From sequence record MN850611.1: 64,000 nt of DNA; one strand, given 5' to 3'. The first letter of the stretch is position 1. The number at the start of each line of letters is the position of its first letter. This document shows positions 6,901-58,213 of the stretch, one piece after another. A model generated the notes under the pieces. It was not told the DNA's origin, made no database searches, and was given only the letters and a program-made list of their open reading frames with translations. This DNA comes from Escherichia phage nataliec. Both the position numbers and the translations under genes were made by a program.

Positions 6901-7686
6901 ATGGGTATTGTAAAAATCATCAATGGGGATATCTTCTCCGCATTTGATAAAGGTAAGTTTGATATTATTGGTCACGGTTGCAACTGTATGAACTTAATGG
7001 GTGCAGGTATCGCTGACAAGATTTCTAAACTTTACCCAAAAGCATATGAGACCGATACAGAAGTTTATCTGTATGCAGGTGGTATAGGCCACAAGCCCTG
7101 TGAAAATTTACTGGGTAATTTCTCTGTAGCACGTTTAAAACAAGGTCGTATAGCTAACCTTTACACTCAGCTTAAGACTGGTAAAGATGCCCGATACAGT
7201 GCTTTAGAGTCATCTTTGAAGAAACTTAACAGGTACTGTGAAGTCAATCAGTTGAAGAAAGTTGGTTTACCTATGATTGGTGCAGGTATCGGTGGACTTG
7301 ACCCTCAAGCCGTCACAGTTATCATCAATCAGGTGATGAAGAGTGTAGATGTTTATCTATATATCTATGAAGGAGAGATGTACCACAAGTTACTCTCAGG
7401 TTGGAAGAACTACTGTGAACCAGAATACTTTGCAGGTGTAGCAGTGTTCACAGATAACGCAGTTACCCTCTTCAGACGAAGAAAAGGTAAGGTACATCAA
7501 AGTAACCCTCCGGTTGAAAAGATGTCTCTAAGTAACGCTCTAGTTACCCACCTGTCGAAGAGCAATCACAGAATTGCAGTAACATTTGGCAGTGATGCAG
7601 ATACTTACATCTATGCAAGAACTGATGAGGATATCGAGACAGTTTTCTCTTCGCCAGAAGTTACCTTCTTAGACGCAAAGAACTAA
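6901..7686 (+). CDS. macro-domain protein (ADP-ribose binding/processing) with C-terminal extension
   Basis: N-terminal IINGDIFSAFDKGKFDIIGHGCNCMNLMGAGIADKISKLYP and later VGLPMIGAGIGGLDP match macro-domain signature blocks; 261 aa. Confidence 0.55.
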   Translation: MGIVKIINGDIFSAFDKGKFDIIGHGCNCMNLMGAGIADKISKLYPKAYETDTEVYLYAGGIGHKPCENLLGNFSVARLKQGRIANLYTQLKTGKDARYSALESSLKKLNRYCEVNQLKKVGLPMIGAGIGGLDPQAVTVIINQVMKSVDVYLYIYEGEMYHKLLSGWKNYCEPEYFAGVAVFTDNAVTLFRRRKGKVHQSNPPVEKMSLSNALVTHLSKSNHRIAVTFGSDADTYIYARTDEDIETVFSSPEVTFLDAKN

Positions 7687-7759
7687 GAAACTTCGTAGTA
7701 TATTCACAATAGACTAAGCCTTTCTTATCTGGTAAATTTTTCAGGTAAGGAGGGCTTTT

Positions 7760-7952
7760 TCATTTCAGAATTGTGCAGGTATATTTCTATAGAGAAATCT
7801 GTAGAGGAAATTTTGAACTCCAAAGAGAAAATTCATTTTCAAACTGTGCAGGTAATCTCCAAAGGGTTTTTTCATTTTCAAAACGTGCAGACCCCGCTCA
7901 GGTCGGGCAAGAAAAATCATTTTAGAATTGTGCAGGTAGGTGGGTGCAGGTG
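7760..7952. repeat. four direct repeats, consensus TCATTTT(c)A(r)AAyyGTGCAGGTA
   Basis: Copies at 7760-7781, 7833-7854, 7872-7893, 7917-7938, plus an extra GTGCAGGT at 7945-7952, in an ORF-poor intergenic stretch. Confidence 0.6.
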
Positions 7953-8115
7953 GGGATGTCGCCATTTCTCACAAGGCTACCACATCTGGAAATAAAAGTC
8001 AACAGAAAAATTTGTAGCGGATTGAAAAATAATTCTTGATTGTAGTTCTGTTTTGTGGTATTCGCGCGCACCCGTTTCATTACAATTTTTGCAAAAAATA
8101 TTTTTAAAATTCCTA

Positions 8116-8144
8116 TTGACTCTTTGAGTATGGTTATCTAATAT
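8116..8144 (+). promoter_or_regulatory. sigma70-like promoter
   Basis: TTGACT, 17-bp spacer, TAATAT; about 50 bp upstream of the CDS at 8195. Confidence 0.55.
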
Positions 8145-8194
8145 TTGCATCAGACGGGCAAGCAAGCCCACTTCCTAAACTGGAGAATCTAAAA

Positions 8195-8401
8195 ATGCTG
8201 TACAGTCGCGAATTGATGGTTACAACTAACATTAACACAAAGGCAAAACGTTTTTACATACAAATCTGTGGCGTATGGTCCAGAATATCAGAAGCTGACT
8301 ATTGCAACTATGTAGAAACGGCTATAAACTCTAATTGCTACCTTACAAGAAATACAAGAAAGTACATAAGACAGACAGCAATTTACTACTACGATAAATA
8401 A
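8195..8401 (+). CDS. hypothetical protein
   Basis: 68 aa ORF downstream of promoter, RBS ctggaga. Confidence 0.4.
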   Translation: MLYSRELMVTTNINTKAKRFYIQICGVWSRISEADYCNYVETAINSNCYLTRNTRKYIRQTAIYYYDK

Positions 8402-8488
8402 AGTACTTTACAAGGGGCTTATAGTTCGATAAAGTAAGCCCCAGATAAAGAGCTTTGCTAACTAACCTTAAACTAGGAGAATCTGAAA
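8401..8488 (+). promoter_or_regulatory. intergenic cassette family A, copy a
   Basis: AAGTACTTTACAA + hairpin GGGGCTTA-loop-TAAGCCCC (8414-8442) + AGATAAAGAGCTTT + conserved leader with SD taggaga; precedes ATG at 8489. Confidence 0.6.
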
Positions 8489-8872
8489 ATGGCATATCGT
8501 GCACCTAAATTCATCAACAAAGACAACTTTCGCAACGCACTGGAGAAGTCACTTGATGAAAAATTTAACGGTAAATTGATTATTGTTCACGCATTCAATT
8601 TTAAGTATGATATTAATGGGAATAAAATCAACCATTACACGGCAACCATGATAGATGGTACACTTTCAAGTGAAAAAGCCGTACTGAATGCACTTGCTGG
8701 ACGCGGTAAAAACCTGATAAAATGTGATAAGCGACGTTATCAGGGCGGCGCATATGGTTATGATGATGCTGTTTACCATCTTGAAAATATGGGCTATCAA
8801 GTAGAAAAAGCTGGAGCATCACAAATCATCGGCAGCGATGGTTATGTAACTATCTTCAAAATTAACAAATAA
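8489..8872 (+). CDS. hypothetical protein
   Basis: 127 aa ORF behind family A cassette. Confidence 0.5.
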   Translation: MAYRAPKFINKDNFRNALEKSLDEKFNGKLIIVHAFNFKYDINGNKINHYTATMIDGTLSSEKAVLNALAGRGKNLIKCDKRRYQGGAYGYDDAVYHLENMGYQVEKAGASQIIGSDGYVTIFKINK

Positions 8873-8958
8873 AGTACTTTACAAGGGGCTTATAGTTCGA
8901 TAAAGTAAGCCCCAGATAAAGAGCTTTAACACTAAATCCTAAATTGGAGAACTTAAAA
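8873..8958 (+). promoter_or_regulatory. intergenic cassette family A, copy b
   Basis: Near-identical to copy a including the hairpin. Confidence 0.6.
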
Positions 8959-9216
8959 ATGGCTATTATCAAAAACGTTGTAATTACCGCAAAGACTCGT
9001 GATGACGCTCGTATCATGGCTAAAAAGTTATGCGGGAAAGTGGTTGACAACGGAAAACAATCTGCTGTAAGGTGGGGCGTGAAAGCTGATAAGCAACTAA
9101 CCTTAAAACATAATTCAAACAACCTTTTTAAAGGTGTAAAATCACTCGGTAAAGTAAACGTTTTTACCAAAAAAGGCTATAAAATGCACTTATCATTAAC
9201 TGGCAATTTAATCTGA
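8959..9216 (+). CDS. hypothetical protein
   Basis: ORF track start 8944 is a TTG inside the conserved leader; ATG at 8959 sits at the conserved distance from the SD. Confidence 0.45.
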   Translation: MAIIKNVVITAKTRDDARIMAKKLCGKVVDNGKQSAVRWGVKADKQLTLKHNSNNLFKGVKSLGKVNVFTKKGYKMHLSLTGNLI

Positions 9217-9228
9217 TAAAGTACTTTA

Positions 9229-9311
9229 CAAGGGGCTTAAAAGTTGATATCTTAAGCCCCAGATAAAGAGCTTTACCACTAAATCAAGTCCTTAAACTAG
9301 GAGATTCAAAA
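9229..9311 (+). promoter_or_regulatory. intergenic cassette family A, copy c
   Basis: Hairpin GGGGCTTAA-loop-TTAAGCCCC with a different loop; conserved leader. Confidence 0.6.
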
Positions 9312-9824
9312 ATGAAAACTGTAGACGCTACCTTTGAAGTTGTAAAAGAAAAATTTTCCATCGTTTATGAGGCTGTTAATTGCTATGAAGCAAGTCATAA
9401 TCTTGATAATTGGAAGTTTACAGATGACCATCAAGGCGGTGTGACTGTTAAAAATCCCAACTGTCAGCGTAATGATTTTAAATATGCAATCCCTTTACAT
9501 TACAGCCTTAAACAGCTTTCAAGTGACTACGCAAAACAAGGCCGGGAAAATCCATCGAAAGAGGCTTATATCAGCTTACAGAGAGAATTAGAAAGAGATT
9601 TAGAGGCTTCAGAGTATAACATTGCCGCGAAAGTTGTGGATGCAAACGGTAGAACGGTTTTAGACAGTTTTTATATTGGTTATGCTTTCGATTGGTGCTA
9701 CAGTGACGGCGATGATTTAGATGACAGACTAAAAGAGGAAGTGAACAACGCAGACGCAGAATCTGAAGTATTAGAACGTTTGGAATCGTTGAAAGACTCA
9801 GTGATGAATATCTTTAAGAACTAA
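9312..9824 (+). CDS. hypothetical protein
   Basis: 170 aa ORF behind family A cassette. Confidence 0.5.
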   Translation: MKTVDATFEVVKEKFSIVYEAVNCYEASHNLDNWKFTDDHQGGVTVKNPNCQRNDFKYAIPLHYSLKQLSSDYAKQGRENPSKEAYISLQRELERDLEASEYNIAAKVVDANGRTVLDSFYIGYAFDWCYSDGDDLDDRLKEEVNNADAESEVLERLESLKDSVMNIFKN

Positions 9825-9827
9825 ATA

Positions 9828-9916
9828 GCTTTCTTTACACGGGGTTATCAAGCTGGTAGGATAGCCCCAGATAAAGAGATTTATCAAATAAAGCCCTTAA
9901 ACTAGGAGATTCTAAA
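9828..9916 (+). promoter_or_regulatory. intergenic cassette family A, divergent copy d
   Basis: Hairpin CGGGGTTATC...GATAGCCCC (compensatory base changes versus other copies) then AGATAAAGAG and conserved SD leader. Confidence 0.5.
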
Positions 9917-10213
9917 ATGAAATTATCAAATCAAGTGCGTGAAAATCTGAGCAAATTACTCAACAAAATTGATTTCATTGAAACATCAAGGAATAGTCAT
10001 GATGTTATGGAATGGTTACACGGCAAAATAAAAGGCCGTCGTGTAGTGATTTGCTTATGGAATAGTTGCAGGGAATATAAAAAACCTGTATTGCAAGTTA
10101 ATATTTATGATGATACTTTTAAAAGTCCTGTAAAGTCTAAAAGCGATTTATTAGAATCCTATGAGATAACTGTAAATGGCAAAGTATCACGTAAAGAGGA
10201 AACACCATGTTAA
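9917..10213 (+). CDS. hypothetical protein
   Basis: 98 aa ORF. Confidence 0.45.
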   Translation: MKLSNQVRENLSKLLNKIDFIETSRNSHDVMEWLHGKIKGRRVVICLWNSCREYKKPVLQVNIYDDTFKSPVKSKSDLLESYEITVNGKVSRKEETPC

Positions 10214-10539
10214 TGACTGGTATCACTGCAATCATTGCCATTTTCGCGCTATATAAGGCATATAAAGCCTATAATCTAGCAAATAAGGCAATCACACAGC
10301 AGGTTAGCAATAACCTTGTAGAAAGCTTTCTAGGGCGCCTCAGTGATGAGCAAATAAAGCGGCTAGAGATGAGCTTCAGATACAAAGCGAAAACCTATCA
10401 GATAAGTGACATCTTCAAAGATGATTTTCAGTTAGTCGATGATTATAATTCACTGATAAATGCTTTAAATATCAGTGACTTAAAAGACTACTACGCTGTA
10501 ATTGTTCAAGAATTGAGCAAACGAAAACAAAGTGTTTGA
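10207..10539 (+). CDS. hypothetical membrane protein
   Basis: N-terminal hydrophobic helix GITAIIAIFALY; 110 aa. Confidence 0.45.
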   Translation: MLMTGITAIIAIFALYKAYKAYNLANKAITQQVSNNLVESFLGRLSDEQIKRLEMSFRYKAKTYQISDIFKDDFQLVDDYNSLINALNISDLKDYYAVIVQELSKRKQSV

Positions 10540-10628
10540 CACTGGTTTTCAGATAGATTAAATTACACATCAACGGGGCGGGAATGACCTTCCCCACTAA
10601 ATAAAGTCCTAAACTGGAGATTCTGAAA
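10536..10628 (+). promoter_or_regulatory. intergenic cassette family B, copy e (promoter + 5'UTR hairpin + SD)
   Basis: TTGACA (10536-10541), 17-bp spacer, TAAATT (10559-10564), then hairpin GGGAA-tgacc-TTCCC and conserved leader AAAGTCCTAAACTGGAGATTC. Confidence 0.6.
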
Positions 10629-10901
10629 ATGTATACTACTAACAACGGTCGTACTCTAAATGTAACTTTGCGCCACTATGTGAACGGTGTAATGCACTTC
10701 GAGGATTTACAAGCCGAACAACATATCTTAGATTGGCAAGTTGCAGGACTCCAAAAAACTGCTACAGGATACGGGAAAAAGATTCCAACCAGTTGGAAAG
10801 TATACTACGAAGGCCGTTTGCGCAGAATTTATCAGGATGTGCAAAGCAATAGCGCATCGAGTTACATCATAGTAAAAGGTAAAAAGCTGAATTTAGTATA
10901 A
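10629..10901 (+). CDS. hypothetical protein
   Basis: 90 aa ORF behind family B cassette. Confidence 0.45.
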   Translation: MYTTNNGRTLNVTLRHYVNGVMHFEDLQAEQHILDWQVAGLQKTATGYGKKIPTSWKVYYEGRLRRIYQDVQSNSASSYIIVKGKKLNLV

Positions 10902-10987
10902 AGTACTTTACAAGGGGCTTATAGTTCGATAAAGTAAGCCCCAGATAAAGAGCTTTACCACTAAATCCTAAATTGGAGAACTTAAAA
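10901..10987 (+). promoter_or_regulatory. intergenic cassette family A, copy f
   Basis: Identical to copy b over about 80 nt. Confidence 0.6.
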
Positions 10988-11392
10988 ATGGCTATTAATA
11001 ATCGCGAGTTATCAATCTTAAAAGCACGTTTGACCGTTAACCGGATTAATGTTATTACGTCATCAGCACCGGACGAAACATTGCACAACATTATTGGGAA
11101 GATTCAAAGCGTTATCTTAGACGTTGAAAACGTAAAAAACTCATTGGCTGACGTTGCAGCAGGTATCACGCTAGACGGTGCACAATATGAAATGACCGAC
11201 ATGTTAGGCAAATCTAAGGTAATGAATAAAGAGCTTGATTTGAAAATGTTTCGATTTGCTGTTAAAGTGTGGCTATCTGTCGAGTATGACGCTAATTTTG
11301 CAATCGCTGACTTTTTCGCAACATGGTTGCAACGTAACTTAACAAATCACGATTTTCGTAATATCTGTGATGCAATTTACGCAGAACTATAA
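10988..11392 (+). CDS. hypothetical protein
   Basis: ORF track start 10973 is TTG in the leader; ATG at 10988 preferred. Confidence 0.45.
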   Translation: MAINNRELSILKARLTVNRINVITSSAPDETLHNIIGKIQSVILDVENVKNSLADVAAGITLDGAQYEMTDMLGKSKVMNKELDLKMFRFAVKVWLSVEYDANFAIADFFATWLQRNLTNHDFRNICDAIYAEL

Positions 11393-11401
11393 AAATTTTT
11401 G

Positions 11402-11493
11402 TTGACACTGGTTTTCAGATAGATTAAATTACACATCAACGGGGCGGGAATGACCTTCCCCACTAAATAAAGTCCTAAACTGGAGATTCAAAA
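11402..11493 (+). promoter_or_regulatory. intergenic cassette family B, copy g
   Basis: Same promoter, hairpin and leader as copy e. Confidence 0.6.
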
Positions 11494-11697
11494 ATGGCTA
11501 TTATCAACGGTTTAACCATTGAAACTACACACATCAAAGATATTAAAGTTGGTGATGTAGTCCTTTCCCACGGCGTAGAGAAAACTGTTACTGCAAAGGA
11601 TATTAAAGAGGATTCTTTCATGGGTAGGACTCTCTTCGGTGATTCTTATTGCTTAGGTTATCTTGCAGTTTTAAAAGTTGTCAAAAATAACCGATAA
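11494..11697 (+). CDS. hypothetical protein
   Basis: 67 aa ORF. Confidence 0.4.
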   Translation: MAIINGLTIETTHIKDIKVGDVVLSHGVEKTVTAKDIKEDSFMGRTLFGDSYCLGYLAVLKVVKNNR

Positions 11698-11789
11698 AGT
11701 ACTTTACAAGGGGCTTAAAAGTTGATATCTTAAGCCCCAGATAAAGAGCTTTACCACTAAATCAAGTCCTTAAACTAGGAGATTCAAAA
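11697..11789 (+). promoter_or_regulatory. intergenic cassette family A, copy h
   Basis: Identical to copy c. Confidence 0.6.
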
Positions 11790-12353
11790 ATGAAATGCTT
11801 TCACGGTACTACTCTGAAAAACTTTGTAAACCTGCTGAGTGGTGGCGATAAGCCGGAAGGAATCTGGAACTGCTCCTACATGGACGATTGTTTCTACGTT
11901 TACCCAATGAATAAGGTTATCAAAATGGAATGTCTGGAAGATGAAGAAGATTCTTACATCCGTGAACGCTGCATTCAAAGTGCCTTAGAGTCGGGGCTTA
12001 TTACGGCTGCTTTCCAAATGGAAACGCAGGACGTGATTGTTATTGAAATGGATATCCCAGAGGAAGAACTAGAGGACGATTATTCTTGTGACAACATGAG
12101 CGAAATTGCCAGCTTTACCGGATACTTTGATAAAAATTGGATTGTTAGTATCCACTCAACGAAATTTAGTGCGATGTATGCACCTTTCTTTGTACCTGAT
12201 ACGAAAAACCGCAATTTGGGATATGTTGACGATGATTTGTTGAGTATTGCAAAAATTGTACAGAATAGCGGTGATAGTTCCGTGTTTTGTGACCTACTGG
12301 ATAAAATCACGGAAAACCTCACAGAACGCAATTTAAAGGACTTTTTAGGATAA
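11790..12353 (+). CDS. hypothetical acidic protein
   Basis: 187 aa ORF. Confidence 0.5.
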   Translation: MKCFHGTTLKNFVNLLSGGDKPEGIWNCSYMDDCFYVYPMNKVIKMECLEDEEDSYIRERCIQSALESGLITAAFQMETQDVIVIEMDIPEEELEDDYSCDNMSEIASFTGYFDKNWIVSIHSTKFSAMYAPFFVPDTKNRNLGYVDDDLLSIAKIVQNSGDSSVFCDLLDKITENLTERNLKDFLG

Positions 12354-12416
12354 GCAGTACAAAGACACCAACTTTTAACTTAAGGCCCACACAGGGCCAT
12401 TTAGAGGGCTTCAATC

Positions 12417-12650
12417 ATGCTTACAACCGTTTATCTTATCCTTTCTATTTGTAATGGCCATTCATGTGATTTTAAAGGGCTTGAGGAGTTTACAGGAAGT
12501 AAAGAAAATGCCGTTCAGGTCTGTCAGATAGCAAGACAAGACTACCCCGCCAGTGATGACATTCAGTGTTATTTTAAGACAGAAGACAGCGACGGCGTTT
12601 ATTTTGACAGCGTTGATGGTCAATATGAAATTATCATTGAAAAAGACTAG
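12417..12650 (+). CDS. hypothetical protein
   Basis: 77 aa ORF, hydrophobic N-terminus. Confidence 0.4.
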   Translation: MLTTVYLILSICNGHSCDFKGLEEFTGSKENAVQVCQIARQDYPASDDIQCYFKTEDSDGVYFDSVDGQYEIIIEKD

Positions 12651-12659
12651 ACAAGCCTG

Positions 12660-12738
12660 ATAAAAGTATGTAAATTGTCAATCAACGGGAGGGATGACCT
12701 CCCTACTAAGTAAAGTCCTTAAACTAAGAGATTCAAAA
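12660..12738 (+). promoter_or_regulatory. intergenic cassette family B, copy i
   Basis: TAAATT -10 (12671-12676), hairpin GGGAGG-gatga-CCTCCC, conserved leader. Confidence 0.5.
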
Positions 12739-13080
12739 ATGGCTTATGTAACCGTAATTACCGATAAAGATGGCTCATCTTGGTCAACTCAAGTAAGCGA
12801 TAAGATGTCACCTATGCAGTGCCTAAAATACTTTGAGCAATGGAACAAAGGTGAAGAAACAAGCCCCTTCCAAGTGATGCAGATTATCCATACAGATAAC
12901 GAAGGGAATAAAACTGTTTTGAATAGTGAGTACTATGCAACCAGATTCGAAACGAGAAGTAAAGCAATGAAGCTCTTACGTGAATCCGGTTATTCTCATA
13001 TTGCCGCGCTAATCTGGGATGACCTCCTAAAAAGTCAGCGTATCAGCTATGTAAAACCGGAAAAAATATTTATCAGCTAA
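12739..13080 (+). CDS. hypothetical protein
   Basis: ORF track start 12694 lies inside the UTR hairpin; ATG at 12739 is at the conserved cassette position. Confidence 0.45.
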   Translation: MAYVTVITDKDGSSWSTQVSDKMSPMQCLKYFEQWNKGEETSPFQVMQIIHTDNEGNKTVLNSEYYATRFETRSKAMKLLRESGYSHIAALIWDDLLKSQRISYVKPEKIFIS

Positions 13081-13112
13081 TCAATAACTTACAAAAAACT
13101 TTTAAAAAAGTG

Positions 13113-13141
13113 TTGACAATGCCCCTTGACATTGGTAACTT
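13113..13141 (+). promoter_or_regulatory. sigma70-like promoter (weak -10)
   Basis: TTGACA, 17-bp spacer, TAACTT. Confidence 0.35.
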
Positions 13142-13209
13142 TGTTCGAGGGGGTTTATCTAAAAGGGATTCACTTAAAAGATTCTTTATAGATAAACTTA
13201 AAAAATTGC

Positions 13210-13301
13210 TTGCAATCAGCTATCAAAACAAGTAAATTACTAATCAACGGGAGGGATGACCTTCCCCACTAAGTAAAGTCCTTAAACTAGGAGATTCTAA
13301 A
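13210..13301 (+). promoter_or_regulatory. intergenic cassette family B, copy j
   Basis: TTGCAA, 17-bp spacer, TAAATT, hairpin, conserved leader. Confidence 0.55.
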
Positions 13302-13832
13302 ATGAACAAGTTCAAAGCTATCAACTTCATCCGCTCAAATAGTGTTATGTCAAAACCTGTTAAAGACACTTACGAATTTCGTTGTAATGGTGTACATTTT
13401 GCAACCATCACCAAATCAGAAAACGGGGCTTATTACGTCCATCGCCGCAATGTTGCAACCGTTGTTGTCTCTCATTTTATGCAAGCTGTCGCGGAACTTC
13501 TCCCGATGTTTTTAGGGCTTTACTTAGATGAGTGTAAAAACGTTCACAATCACGTTAAAAACCTTTTAAACAGTTATAAAATGGCTTATGAACGTTCTAT
13601 CAAGTCCTTAAACAAGTTTTACAACGCACCTGAAAATACTGTGTCAATAGCCTATGCTGCAAATGGTGGGATGGTAAACTTATCCAATGTGGAAGAAATC
13701 GAACTGCATGACTTACGCCCTAGCGGTTACTCTAAGACTCTCGGTGAAGGATTATCATTCAATATCAAGAACTTAGAAAAAACTTTAAGAGATATTGAAA
13801 AAGATATTGACGAGACAATCAAAAATCTGTAA
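13302..13832 (+). CDS. hypothetical protein
   Basis: 176 aa ORF. Confidence 0.5.
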   Translation: MNKFKAINFIRSNSVMSKPVKDTYEFRCNGVHFATITKSENGAYYVHRRNVATVVVSHFMQAVAELLPMFLGLYLDECKNVHNHVKNLLNSYKMAYERSIKSLNKFYNAPENTVSIAYAANGGMVNLSNVEEIELHDLRPSGYSKTLGEGLSFNIKNLEKTLRDIEKDIDETIKNL

Positions 13833-13897
13833 ATTACTAATCAACGGGAGGGATAACCTCCCCACTAAGTAAAGTCCTTAAACTAGGAGACTCTAAA
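13807..13897 (+). promoter_or_regulatory. intergenic cassette family B, copy k
   Basis: TTGACG, 17-bp spacer, TAAATT (overlaps the 3' end of the preceding CDS), hairpin, conserved leader. Confidence 0.55.
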
Positions 13898-14146
13898 ATG
13901 GCAACTATCCGCGCAACTGTTAACGAATTTGGCTTCTACTCTCTGGATGTTAAATTCGACCTTGTGGGTACTGATAACGCCTTTGAAATGGTGAAAGTTC
14001 TTATCAGTCAGACCATCAAAGACTATAATCCTTCAGATGAGTTCTGGAAAGAAACAAAACAGGAAGTTCTCAAAGAGGGCTATTCATATCACTATTGGGG
14101 TGAAAAAATCGTCTCCCTGTACTACGACAAAGAAGGCACTAACTAA
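13898..14146 (+). CDS. hypothetical protein
   Basis: 82 aa ORF; followed by hairpin GGGGCTAAATAGCCCC at 14158-14173. Confidence 0.45.
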   Translation: MATIRATVNEFGFYSLDVKFDLVGTDNAFEMVKVLISQTIKDYNPSDEFWKETKQEVLKEGYSYHYWGEKIVSLYYDKEGTN

Positions 14147-15820
14147 TCGACGCAACGGGGCTAAATAGCCCCAGATACCTTTACAGCCCCTTTCCCATAG
14201 GAGCTTTTTTACGTCTATCAAACCCCTTATACAACCCTTTCCCTTTCCTTTCCAGAATCTTATCAGACCTTAAAAAGCAATAACTCTATAGCCTACTCTA
14301 TAGCCTTTTATCAAATCAACTTAAATATAAGCCCATAACCCGAAAGGGAAGGGCAACCATTTAAACGCTCTATAAAGCCCTATAACAGCCTTATCAACCT
14401 AACTTAAGGGATTGCATTACCTCACCCTTAAAAGCCCTTTATAAAGCTTCCTAGAGCCTTAAAAGAATCTTATAAGGGTGTAAGCTTTATTATCTCGTTA
14501 GCTATCTTGTGAATAACTAAAAGGGCTATGAGATAGGAATCTATCGAATCCTATTGTTAGTGTCTTAAAAGTATGTTATAGGGGCTTAAAAGTTACTTTG
14601 AAGTAGCTTAAAAGTTACGTAAATGCTAGCCCCCTTAACATTTTCTTAACAATTTCTTAACAATCCCTACATAGTTATGCTTTTAAGACACTTGTTAGCA
14701 ACTTGTTAGCCCCTTGTTAAATCTCTGTTAAGACCACGTAAAAGCCTTGTAAGAGTCTTTGACATAGCCTTAAAAGCTCCTGTGAAGCCCTATAAAGAGT
14801 TATCTGTACAGTTGGGGTGTAACTACTAGGAAGAGACTTAAAAGAGCTTATAAAGAGCTATAGAGAGCTTTTAAGAGGTATGTTTAAGGAATCACTAAGA
14901 AAGGGAAGGGAACGATAAGAAAGAGATAGTGACCATGTTAATAGCTAGTTAAAAAGATTAAACACTTGTTAGAAACTTGTTAATTATCTTAACAAAATAA
15001 CTCTTTAAAATTAACTTGTTAGCTCTTGTTAGTCATCTGTTAAGATTCTGTAAAACCTATGTATCAACTGTTAAGAAACTGTTACAGCCTTGTTAGTTCT
15101 GTTAAGAATCTGTTAAGACCTTTGAAGAGTTGTTAAGAAGATGTGAGAACTGTTAAGAGATTGTTAAGGATATTTTAAAATTTTGCAAAGTACTTGTAAT
15201 GGAGCTGTTAAGGGCTACCAAGCAGATATACATCCTAATCAGATATTTTTGAGTTCCTTCAAAGACCTTAAAAAATGACTTGACAGTCCTATTTTATAAA
15301 AATTTTAAGATTCTGAATAATTACCTATACAGTCTTTTAAAAATACAGGTAATAACAGGCTTATAAGATACCTTGTTAGTACCGTGTTAGACCTTGTGAG
15401 ATAAGGTCTGTAAAGATATTCCTGTTAAGTTTGTTAAAACAGTCTATATAGAGGCTTAGTAATACCTAGTGAACACCTATAGAGAGTGTCATAGCTGACA
15501 TAGAGATTAAGAGGTGTATAGGAGCTTCTAAGAGGGTGTAGAGAGATGGTTAAGGTGATTGTATAGGTTGTTAAGAGGGATTGTTAGAAGAGTGTTTAGA
15601 AGGGCTATTTAGAAGGGCTATACAGAGGGCTATTAAGACCACTAGATAGTTACTAAGATACTATATAGTACTATATAACTATATAGAGAGTAAGATTAAG
15701 AAGGTTGTTAAGAAGGGTAGATATTTTGTTCACATATGATGGTGACCCAGAGGTTGGGACAACCGATAAAATTTTATAAGAATTAAAAAGCCCCCCAATT
15801 AAGGAGGCTCTTAAGATATT
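14147..15820. repeat. ORF-free iteron-dense region (candidate origin or protein-binding array)
   Basis: About 1.67 kb with no ORF of 60 aa or more in six frames, between convergent gene blocks. Dense short repeats: CTTGTTAG/CTGTTAAG at roughly 10-11 bp spacing (14940-15180), tandem TTCTTAACAAT and ACTTGTTAGC pairs, CCTTAAAAG copies, and a purine-rich TTAAGARGG series (15480-15730). Confidence 0.6.
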
Positions 15821-26005: not shown

Positions 26006-26082
26006 CTCTGTTTAGCTCAGCTTGGTAGAGCGTTCCGTTTGGGGCGGTAAGGCCGGAGGTTCAAGTCCTCCAACAGAGACCA
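26006..26082 (+). tRNA. tRNA-Pro (anticodon UGG), CCA encoded
   Basis: Hand fold: acceptor ctctgtt/aacagag, D stem gctc/gagc, anticodon loop tTTGGgg, T arm ggagg-ttcaagt-cctcc. Confidence 0.65.
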
Positions 26083-26099
26083 AATTTAAAGGGGTTACT

Positions 26100-26456
26100 A
26101 TGAGATTTTTAAAAGAATGTCCAGTTCATGGTTTAACTGAACATAGCATTCATAAGAATGGTAACGCCGGTAATAGAGTAAATTGTCTAAAATGTTGTGC
26201 ATTAAGGACAAAACTTAGAGAGAATGCCAATAGAGAGAAAGCATATAAGCTTTATGGCGATAGCTGCAAAATTTGTGGCTATAATAAATGTAAAAATGCT
26301 TTAGAATGGCATCACCTTAACCCAAACGAAAAAGAGAATACACCATCAAAACTTATGGGTGCATCTTGGGAAAAGGTTAAAAAAGAACTTGATAAATGTG
26401 TTTTGCTATGTGCTAATTGCCACAGAGAGGTTCATAGCGGAATTACAATGATTTAA
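26100..26456 (+). CDS. HNH homing endonuclease
   Basis: Motifs WHHLNP and CANCHREVH; ORF track start 26022 overlaps tRNA-Pro, so ATG at 26100 (RBS aaagggg) is preferred. Confidence 0.7.
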   Translation: MRFLKECPVHGLTEHSIHKNGNAGNRVNCLKCCALRTKLRENANREKAYKLYGDSCKICGYNKCKNALEWHHLNPNEKENTPSKLMGASWEKVKKELDKCVLLCANCHREVHSGITMI

Positions 26457-26457
26457 T

Positions 26458-26532
26458 GTCGTAGAAGGCAAATGGTTAGCCACCTGACCTTCAATCAGTT
26501 GCTCGCAGGTTCGAATCCTGTCTACGACACCA
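26458..26532 (+). tRNA. tRNA, anticodon ambiguous (loop cCTTCAa, possibly UUC/Glu with C33)
   Basis: Acceptor gtcgtag/ctacgac, T arm gcagg-ttcgaat-cctgt, CCA encoded; anticodon stem has a mismatch. Confidence 0.5.
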
Positions 26533-26538
26533 GTTTTG

Positions 26539-26612
26539 ACAGAAGACCAATTACAGCAAACTTAATCTTATTCATCTGAAGGTAAATCGGACAAAGAAGA
26601 TATTTGGTCTGG
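26539..26612 (+). ncRNA. helix-bracketed structured element 1
   Basis: 5' CAGAAGACCAA pairs with 3' TTGGTCTGG, enclosing about 55 nt; sits between two tRNA genes. Confidence 0.35.
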
Positions 26613-26623
26613 TCATTAAGAAT

Positions 26624-26700
26624 TGCGGGTATAGAGAAAGGGCGTCTCACATGTCTCATTAGCATGGTATCGGCAGGTTCGACTCCTGCACCCGCCTCCA
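26624..26700 (+). tRNA. tRNA-Met or Ile2 (anticodon CAU)
   Basis: Acceptor (t)gcgggt/acccgc(c), anticodon arm catgt-ctCATta-gcatg, T arm gcagg-ttcgact-cctgc, CCA encoded. Confidence 0.6.
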
Positions 26701-26706
26701 AATTTA

Positions 26707-26770
26707 CAGAAGACCGTTTACAGCAATATTTATTAAATTTTTAGCGGAAAAATTGAAAGATACGGTCTGG
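26707..26770 (+). ncRNA. helix-bracketed structured element 2
   Basis: 5' AGAAGACCGTTT pairs with 3' ACGGTCTGG; internal hairpin AATTTTT-agcgg-AAAAATT. Confidence 0.35.
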
Positions 26771-26783
26771 TAATACTAAACAT

Positions 26784-26860
26784 GGTTAGGAAGCACATAA
26801 GGTATGTGCGGTCGCCTGTTAAGCGAATGGCACAGGGTTCGAATCCCTGACTAACCGCCA
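26784..26860 (+). tRNA. tRNA-Asn (anticodon GUU)
   Basis: Acceptor ggttagg/actaacc, D stem gcac/gtgc, loop ctGTTaa, T arm caggg-ttcgaat-ccctg, CCA encoded. Confidence 0.7.
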
Positions 26861-26929
26861 AATTTAGGAGAGAAGCGATTGCTCACCGATTTGTAAGGTG
26901 CAAGTCCTTAGCCTGAATAGAAATTAAAT

Positions 26930-27017
26930 GTGTCGTTATCCCGTAGATGGTAGCGGTGGGGACTGTAAATCCCTTGTCATTGAGACTCGGTAGGTTCGAC
27001 TCCTACACGGCACACCA
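26930..27017 (+). tRNA. tRNA-Tyr (anticodon GUA), class II
   Basis: 88 nt; acceptor gtgtcgt/acggcac, anticodon arm gggga-ctGTAaa-tccct, long variable arm, T arm gtagg-ttcgact-cctac. Confidence 0.7.
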
Positions 27018-27022
27018 ATAAA

Positions 27023-27100
27023 GGTTATGTAGTTTAATTTGGTTAAAATACTCCCCTGTCACGGGAGATGATGAGGGTTCAAATCCCTTCATAACCGCCA
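27023..27100 (+). tRNA. tRNA-Asp (anticodon GUC)
   Basis: Acceptor ggttatg/cataacc, anticodon arm ctccc-ctGTCac-gggag, T arm gaggg-ttcaaat-ccctt. Confidence 0.75.
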
Positions 27101-27161
27101 ATTTTGAGAGGGCTATTTAGCCCCTCCCTTAAAGAGTTCTTACGAGTATTCTTTAAAGGAG

Positions 27162-57883: not shown

Positions 57884-58213
57884 TTAGTCTGCCAACCTTA
57901 AATTGAAATTAACACCAAATTTTTCACATACTTCCAACATATACTCAAGGGAAACATTACCAGTGAGGTGGATTATGTTGGATACACGAGCCTGAGAGAT
58001 ACCACAAATTTTAGCAACTTGCTCTTGAGAAAGACCTCTTGATTTAATCTCTCTCTTAAAACGATGTGCAACGAAGTCTCTCATTTCGTCTACATCCATT
58101 GGACAAACATAACTCTCCATTTCAGCCTCTCTATCAGCCTCCCAATCATCTTGTGGAGCATAAGGGTCAAAAGCCTCATTCATCTTTCTTCTTCCGTTTG
58201 CGTGAAGTGTCAA
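57884..58213 (-). CDS. HTH (XRE/Cro-like) DNA-binding protein
   Basis: Helix-turn-helix GLSQEQVAKICGISQARVSNI. Confidence 0.55.
   Translation of the reverse strand: MTLHANGRRKMNEAFDPYAPQDDWEADREAEMESYVCPMDVDEMRDFVAHRFKREIKSRGLSQEQVAKICGISQARVSNIIHLTGNVSLEYMLEVCEKFGVNFNLRLAD

Follow-up and report, generated by a model that had tools for sequence, protein, structure and literature searches.

A stretch of 64,000 nucleotides from Escherichia phage nataliec (MN850611.1), analysed here as one window, carries a short array of direct repeats between a macro-domain gene and a block of small genes preceded by promoter cassettes. The array is a non-coding, DNA-level element specific to the subfamily Ounavirinae, and two short blocks in each repeat are under purifying selection. 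We tentatively favour a role as accessory binding sites, possibly for a putative DNA-binding protein acting on transcription across the operon boundary, because its position is constant in four genera and it tolerates insertions. The element appears to be undescribed, yet of a familiar cis-element kind; no description of it was found in the literature searched. For typing, biocontrol and therapy, few phages of Salmonella and E. coli are used as widely as Felix O1 and its relatives, and the Felix O1 genome paper states that the temporal regulation of their transcription is unknown (PMC3185647). Few other non-coding sequences are shared by all four genera, and the array provides a defined 18-bp bait with two invariant blocks for finding a regulator or initiator.

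Repeat architecture and conservation

Direct reading and a repeat finder detected four direct copies on the same strand, starting at 7760, 7833, 7872 and 7917 (73, 39 and 45 bp start to start). The placement of four repeats between the macro-domain gene and the cassette array, and their irregular spacing of 39-73 bp, had been given in a preliminary description of this DNA and were both confirmed. Absent from that description were a decayed fifth copy and the direct contact of copy 1 with the T-run of a terminator. The copies are as follows.

7760-7781, plus strand: repeat copy 1, TCATTTCAGAATTGTGCAGGTA (repeat finder, pattern search), present in all genera
about 7785-7807, plus strand: degenerate copy 1b, GAAATCTGTAGAGG (repeat finder, 64% copy; alignment)
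7833-7854, plus strand: repeat copy 2, TCATTTTCAAACTGTGCAGGTA, an exact match to the previously proposed consensus (pattern search; alignment)
7872-7893, plus strand: repeat copy 3, TCATTTTCAAAACGTGCAGACC (direct reading, 18-nt core search)
7917-7938, plus strand: repeat copy 4, TCATTTTAGAATTGTGCAGGTA (pattern search)

The proposed 22-nt consensus held for three copies at up to three mismatches (0.03 expected; none of 100 shuffled sequences reached three), but not for the 3' end of copy 3, which reads GTGCAGACC instead of GTGCAGGTA and so departs from GGTA. An 18-nt core fits all four copies and recovered no other match in the window. Each site consists of (T)CATTT, seven bases and GTGCA, an asymmetric, bipartite architecture with all copies in the same orientation. 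The CATTT and GTGCA blocks lie about 11 bp apart, centre to centre, and thus on the same face of the helix.

The 3 kb surrounding the array is 92-96.5% identical to Felixounavirus (subfamily Ounavirinae) phages of Escherichia, Salmonella and Shigella, with warpig as the top match. Conservation was analysed in alignments of eight phages from four genera (Felixounavirus, Suspvirus, Mooglevirus and Kolesnikvirus) and in a larger set of 28 non-identical loci, mostly closely related Felixounavirus, from which 103 sites were gathered by a pattern match tolerating up to four mismatches. CATTT (positions 2-6) and GTGCA (positions 14-18) were invariant in 103 of 103 sites; the seven positions between them and the 3' flank varied, and the upstream run was AAA or TTT in equal shares. 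Column entropy was 0.16-0.26 bits in the cores of copies 1, 3 and 4; the spacers had values of 0.31-0.78 bits, and the neighbouring 3' end of the coding sequence had 0.67 bits. The 3' flank is GTGCAGGT in enteric phages and GTGCATAG in Erwinia phages, a difference that could reflect positions that are not contacted or a phage-encoded binder co-evolving with its site.

The non-coding gap that holds the array (508 bp, 7687-8194) found matches in 289 phage records, in which Erwinia Kolesnikvirus phages align only across the repeats (query positions 146-248). When 6 kb of the window was compared with these Erwinia phages by BLAST, alignments were confined to the beginning of the macro gene, the array itself, the promoter cassettes and a segment of one gene. 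The elements on either side of the array are listed below.

6901-7686, plus strand: macro-domain ('putative phosphatase') gene (Pfam Macro E=1.3e-7; phrog_335 E=1e-112; warpig annotation)
7716-7757, plus strand: intrinsic terminator hairpin with a 17-pair stem (terminator scan; dominant in the RNA fold)
7939-7984, no strand: variable tract with an orphan GTGCAGGT (7944-7951), window-type allele, with the highest column entropy of the gap, 0.87 bits (alignments)
7985-8036, no strand: 52-bp block AAAAGTCAA…GAAAAATAATTCTTGA, with 67% invariant columns in 24 enteric-phage sequences
8075-8115, no strand: A+T-rich stretch immediately 5' of the promoter (sequence; alignment)
8116-8144, plus strand: sigma-70-type promoter TTGACT-17-TAATAT, which opens the small-gene block (promoter scan; annotated promoter in ASO1A)
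8195-8401, plus strand: first downstream small gene, 68 amino acids, phrog_5293, function not assigned (open reading frame (ORF) list; PHROGs)

The order of terminator, array, variable tract, A+T-rich stretch, TTGAC sigma-70 promoter and next gene is the same in all genera. Across the four genera the array lies against the terminator and 180-215 bp upstream of the promoter; in the window, 178 bp separate its end from the -35 hexamer at 8116. Copy 1 is flanked on its 5' side by the T-run of the terminator, and a rho-independent terminator at this position is also annotated in the wV8, ASO1A and KhF2 records. The macro-domain gene is the last of a plus-strand operon that includes rIIA, rIIB, lysin, polynucleotide kinase and spanins (warpig annotation). 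From 8195, small plus-strand genes follow in series toward the right genome end, and the promoter at 8116-8144 is the strongest-looking host-type promoter of this block. Its -35 hexamer is kept even in Erwinia phages, with TTGAC invariant in the eight-phage alignment.

The spacing of the copies is 73/39/45 in Felixounavirus and SUSP2, 75/41/45 in Mooglevirus and SUSP1 and 37/37/39 in Kolesnikvirus, and the helical phase between copies differs among copies and among genera. Copy number is 3-5 in relatives, and decayed copies also exist. Copy 1b has lost both invariant blocks in enteric phages; a recognisable copy is kept at its register in Erwinia phages. In the lineage of loci L036 and L250, copy 2 is deleted with a half-copy kept, and L250 has an intact GTGCAG at the copy 1b register.

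There is one array per genome, with no other copy in the window and none in the remaining 23.5 kb of the near-identical warpig, where the single match outside the window-equivalent region has three mismatches, lacks GTGCA and is at chance level. Tandem motif pairs in IMG/VR are almost exclusively on Ounavirinae-type contigs of 84-94 kb, and a metagenome scan with a loose pattern gave, after filtering, at least two more Ounavirinae-like contigs (L250 and L284). Records labelled Staphylococcus phage SA1 (GU169904) or Campylobacter carry near-identical Felixounavirus sequence, including the array and a gene for a regulator of the XRE type, which suggests that they are mislabelled or contaminated.

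Insertion tolerance and transcriptional readings

Published insertion data are available for Bas63, which is 95.5% identical to the window. In PhageMaP, barcode cassettes were inserted across the Bas63 genome by Cas9-assisted recombination (bioRxiv 10.1101/2024.10.10.617714; preprint). Bas63 'gene 96' (64142-64297, minus strand) lies inside the array: its ORF occupies positions 1643-1798 of the Bas63 locus (L136), in which the copies start at 1638, 1711, 1750 and 1795. Gene 96 insertion scores are +0.24 to +0.93 in S17, a second laboratory host and a TerY-P host, resembling those of genes that are clearly dispensable and differing from those of genes for replication or structure; the scores are given without exact insertion points within the array. 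These neutral insertions make a sole essential origin, or any essential cis site, unlikely, and suggest that the phage can do without the array in the laboratory. The region is apparently interruptible by genome engineers without cost.

We propose that one sequence-specific double-stranded-DNA-binding protein would dock at three to five sites in the same orientation, and that this candidate binder, a protein or protein pair, would read two successive major grooves. The occupied array would tune transcription between the rII-lysis-macro operon and the small-gene block, possibly by insulation against read-through, or by repression or boost of the downstream promoter, and its function would be accessory, not essential. 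We infer that a protein would bind, which protein it may be and that the output would be transcriptional. The insertion tolerance fits an accessory element beside mostly dispensable small genes. As in an operator array, specific sites are repeated and their cores are less variable than the spacers. The array also resembles known direct-repeat operators (P2 Cox/186 Apl boxes, AraC-type half-sites, response-regulator repeats) in having same-orientation two-groove sites upstream of a promoter at a transcription-unit boundary. Operator sites and iterons had both been suggested earlier; the asymmetric bipartite site, direct orientation and cross-genus conservation fit both and prove neither.

Several points weigh against an array acting on transcription. 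The distance of 178 bp to the -35 hexamer is beyond classical operator occlusion, and the sites neither overlap nor closely flank the promoter; unlike the direct-repeat operators, they lie 180-350 bp from it and match no marbox or other tested consensus. Strictly cooperative binding is unlikely, given that the helical phasing is not conserved. The ten neighbouring ORFs showed no Rep or DNA-binding domain (Pfam, PHROGs). The gene 96 score refers to unspecified array positions, and single insertions may leave a redundant array functional. The candidate binder tried, an XRE helix-turn-helix ORF, was rejected: tblastn gave 260 matches in enteric Ounavirinae and none in the array-bearing Erwinia Kolesnikvirus, and XRE-type proteins usually bind palindromes.

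The XRE-type helix-turn-helix protein is encoded at 57884-58213 on the minus strand ('putative transcriptional regulator', bas63_0035) and is the sole annotated regulator. It is important for fitness, with scores of about -1.2 to -1.4 in the PhageMaP data (bioRxiv 10.1101/2024.10.10.617714).

Sites of known host regulators were searched for as well. The marbox AYnGCACnnWnnRYYAAAY was not found in the repeats at up to three mismatches, its genome-wide count was at chance, and the GCAC-to-AAA spacing in the repeats is one base short. By eye, against the consensus sequences, none of OmpR, PhoB, TorR, Fis, Fur, IHF, sigma-54 and sigma-E explains the invariant GTGCA.

Tandem promoters, sigma-70 or phage-specific, firing rightward into the small-gene block are only faintly credible. 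Tandem early promoters are known in T7, and copy 1 scores 9/12 as TTTTCA-17-TATATT; it is the only copy to do so, and sigma-70 promoters were not supported, the promoter scan agreeing with the earlier view that the repeats are not sigma-70-like. The hexamers after GTGCAGG, where the -10 would be, vary among copies and genera and are among the least conserved positions (information content of 0.1-0.9 bits at positions 20-26), and the would-be spacer is invariant. A phage-specific promoter class, one of the earlier suggestions, was rejected because the motif is confined to a single locus in the 64-kb window and the 23.5 kb of warpig; the whole-genome motif search proposed with it thus removes this reading, not the binding-site ones. 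For the Felix O1 genome, neither an RNA polymerase of the phage nor any apparent factor changing host promoter specificity was reported (PMC3185647).

A role as RNA, in a read-through 3' extension of the macro operon or in a leftward transcript, is quite improbable; the units would bind a protein or pair with mRNAs, for example at small-gene start regions. Over 12 nt, copy 4 is perfectly complementary to two translation start regions (ATTCTAAAATGA, 9909 and 13294), but the complementarity is limited to one copy and one lineage, and the total of complementary 10-mers looks compatible with chance (hand estimate, no shuffles). Strand orientation is kept, and TTGACT-17-TAGCCT can be read on the minus strand at about 7996-7968; this promoter is below the scan threshold, however, and its -10 ends in G in most relatives. 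A very strong plus-strand terminator precedes the array. The plus-strand folding score (z=-3.3) is owed to the terminator hairpin, the only stable fold; the minus strand gave z=-0.9. Rfam gave no match to the array (best E=0.14, far below gathering scores).

A small protein is the least credible of the readings. ORFs of 50-74 codons are present on both strands (plus-strand 7771-7995 or 7773-7925, minus-strand 7765-7965) and are annotated in several GenBank records, in which the annotators' strand differs. The inter-copy distances differ by non-multiples of three among genera, with a shift of +2 nt and the 37/37/39 spacing of the Erwinia phages, so that across the spacings of 73/39/45, 75/41/45 and 37/37/39 no reading frame is kept and protein coding was not supported. 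Copy 4 also puts TAG in the plus-strand frame, and conservation tracks the DNA motif, not codon positions. Array ORFs annotated on either strand include wV8 gene 13, Sf14 gp039 and bas63_0096/0097; since the reading frame is not conserved, the hypothetical proteins annotated across the array are probably spurious gene calls, not genes.

Replication, relic and DNA-entry readings

The main rival, which we consider unlikely, reads the repeats as the iterons of a replication origin that is probably auxiliary. Once bound to them, an initiator would unwind the A+T-rich stretch at 8075-8115, aided by transcription from the adjacent strong promoter. Monomeric iteron-binding initiators read sites with two blocks one helical turn apart, and the array offers three to five direct asymmetric repeats of 18-22 bp with two such conserved blocks, at a single locus per genome, in a large 508-bp non-coding gap kept across genera; A+T-rich DNA and a strong promoter follow to the right of the copies. 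In the direct asymmetric repeats of about 20 bp, their two blocks, the non-coding gap, the single locus and the nearby A+T-rich DNA and promoter, it resembles the iteron origins of lambda ori, P1 oriR, the R6K/F/pPS10 type and T4 oriE. No described replication origin for Felix O1-type phages was found in the literature searched.

The array is unlike these origins in its irregular, unphased spacing of 37-75 bp, with no regular register and no conserved helical phase. Some 140 bp separate the last copy from the A+T-rich tract, which could be a candidate for DNA unwinding but is accounted for just as well as an UP-like element. No initiator gene was recognised among the ten neighbouring ORFs (Pfam, PHROGs). 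The DnaA box TTWTNCACA had no match within 7760-7940 at up to one mismatch, and IHF sites were checked by eye only; compared by eye with the DnaA consensus, the Erwinia version CTATGCACA has one mismatch and the enteric version ACCTGCACA three. Iterons are required in cis for replication, but array insertions were neutral in three host conditions in the Bas63 data, which speaks against a sole essential origin and leaves an auxiliary origin unaffected.

Rather improbable is an evolutionary leftover, in which tandem duplication of the descending arm of the terminator, its T-run and the downstream sequence left copies with no present function. The G-rich stretch and W-run before each unit resemble the 3' arm of the terminator (GGAGGGCTTTTT vs AAAGGGTTTTTT), copy number varies from 3 to 5 with decayed copies present, and the Bas63 insertions are neutral in the three host conditions. 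However, the 5-nt blocks are invariant in four genera while spacers and adjacent coding DNA have diverged beyond BLAST alignment; neutral relics would be expected to decay like copy 1b.

The position of the array relative to the genome end was obtained by homology. The terminal repeat of UAB_Phi87, mapped experimentally (PMC4837284, Fig. S1), aligns to 14637-15221 of the window (86% identity), 6.7 kb right of the array. This places the array 7.3 kb, or some 8.4% of the genome length, from the right physical end. A genome terminus or packaging site was thereby rejected. The location is consistent with a DNA-entry or genome-end checkpoint like the T5 injection stop, at which a host or virion protein would halt the DNA after the first ~8%; we regard this as very improbable. 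Small genes with host-type promoters fill the segment from the array to the end. In T5, the first step transfers 7.9% and stops in the injection-stop region iss, a conserved non-coding region rich in repeats; iss, presumed to be essential, contains eight paired DnaA boxes as well as palindromes and large inverted repeats (bioRxiv 10.1101/866236). Like iss, the array region is repeat-rich, non-coding and better conserved than its neighbours, lies ~8% from one end and forms the inner edge of a small-gene block with host-type promoters. Unlike iss, it has short direct repeats only, with no DnaA boxes in the repeats and no large palindromes (repeat finder), and it tolerates insertions; no report of two-step injection for Felix-O1-like phages was found in the literature searched.

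It is improbable that the array is the cis site of a function new to Felix-O1-like phages, bound by an unannotated protein conserved in the subfamily. Such a site might be an auxiliary origin with a new kind of initiator, or a checkpoint ~8% from the right end at which DNA would be held or organised as it enters or replicates, functionally a distant analogue of the T5 injection stop.

Adjacent sequences and neighbouring repeats

The extra GTGCAGGT reported after the repeats is present at 7944-7951, in the variable tract. This tract (7939-7984) has two alleles, and the window type is not found in wV8-type phages or in other genera; the extra GTGCAGGT is therefore lineage-specific and not part of the conserved element. 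Two further matches, at 7001 and 7280, are Gly-Ala-Gly-Ile codons in the macro gene. The extra GTGCAGGT was rejected as a macro-like gene fragment: similarity to the macro gene is 72% over 29 nt, but no significant protein alignment was obtained. In wV8-type, Suspvirus and Sf14 phages (L002 at ~1775-1805, L003, L006, L007 and L008), a C-rich tract replaces the G-rich tract of the window. The minus strand of the C-rich tract is a canonical four-run G-quadruplex motif, for example GGGGAGAGAGGGGGTAATAGGGGGAGAGGGG; the 64-kb window has no such motif.

The 52-bp block at 7985-8036, which enteric Ounavirinae share, ranks with the best-conserved non-coding parts of the gap. It contains GAAAAAT…TTGTAG units resembling decayed repeats of the array, plus a minus-strand TTGACT, and may be part of the same control region.

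The Andreotti record MN850610 seems to be without some of the sequence at the repeat array. Its start (L005, 1760-1789) repeats, in inverted form, 20 nt of a sequence that lies about 60 nt away (agacctgagtgtggtctgca vs tgcagaccacactcaggtc); this fold-back is an assembly artefact and accounts for the end of the record just to the right of copy 4.

Promoter-stem-loop cassettes precede each small gene at 8397-14000 (for example 8400-8465, 8871-8936, 9218-9283, 10900-10965 and 11696-11761). Each has a sigma-70 promoter TTTACA-17-TAAAGT, a stem-loop GGGGCT…AGCCCC and a conserved ribosome-binding region, and the cassettes are conserved even in Erwinia phages. We take them to resemble the 'PeSL' modules of T4, presumably involved in shuffling small early genes. 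Like the cassettes, the array is repeated regulatory DNA of the same region with cross-genus DNA conservation; unlike them, its motif has no promoter hexamers and occurs at one locus only, whereas the cassettes recur before many genes. The repeat-family comparison agrees with the earlier statement that the repeats belong to neither cassette family.

A 1.7-kb non-coding region (14150-15820) between convergent gene blocks, which includes the terminal-repeat homologue at 14637-15221, contains dense CTGTTAAGA and CTTGTTA repeats, some in an 11-bp register, which may be packaging or terminus-recognition sites. Twenty-four tRNA genes are clustered on the plus strand at 26006-31350.

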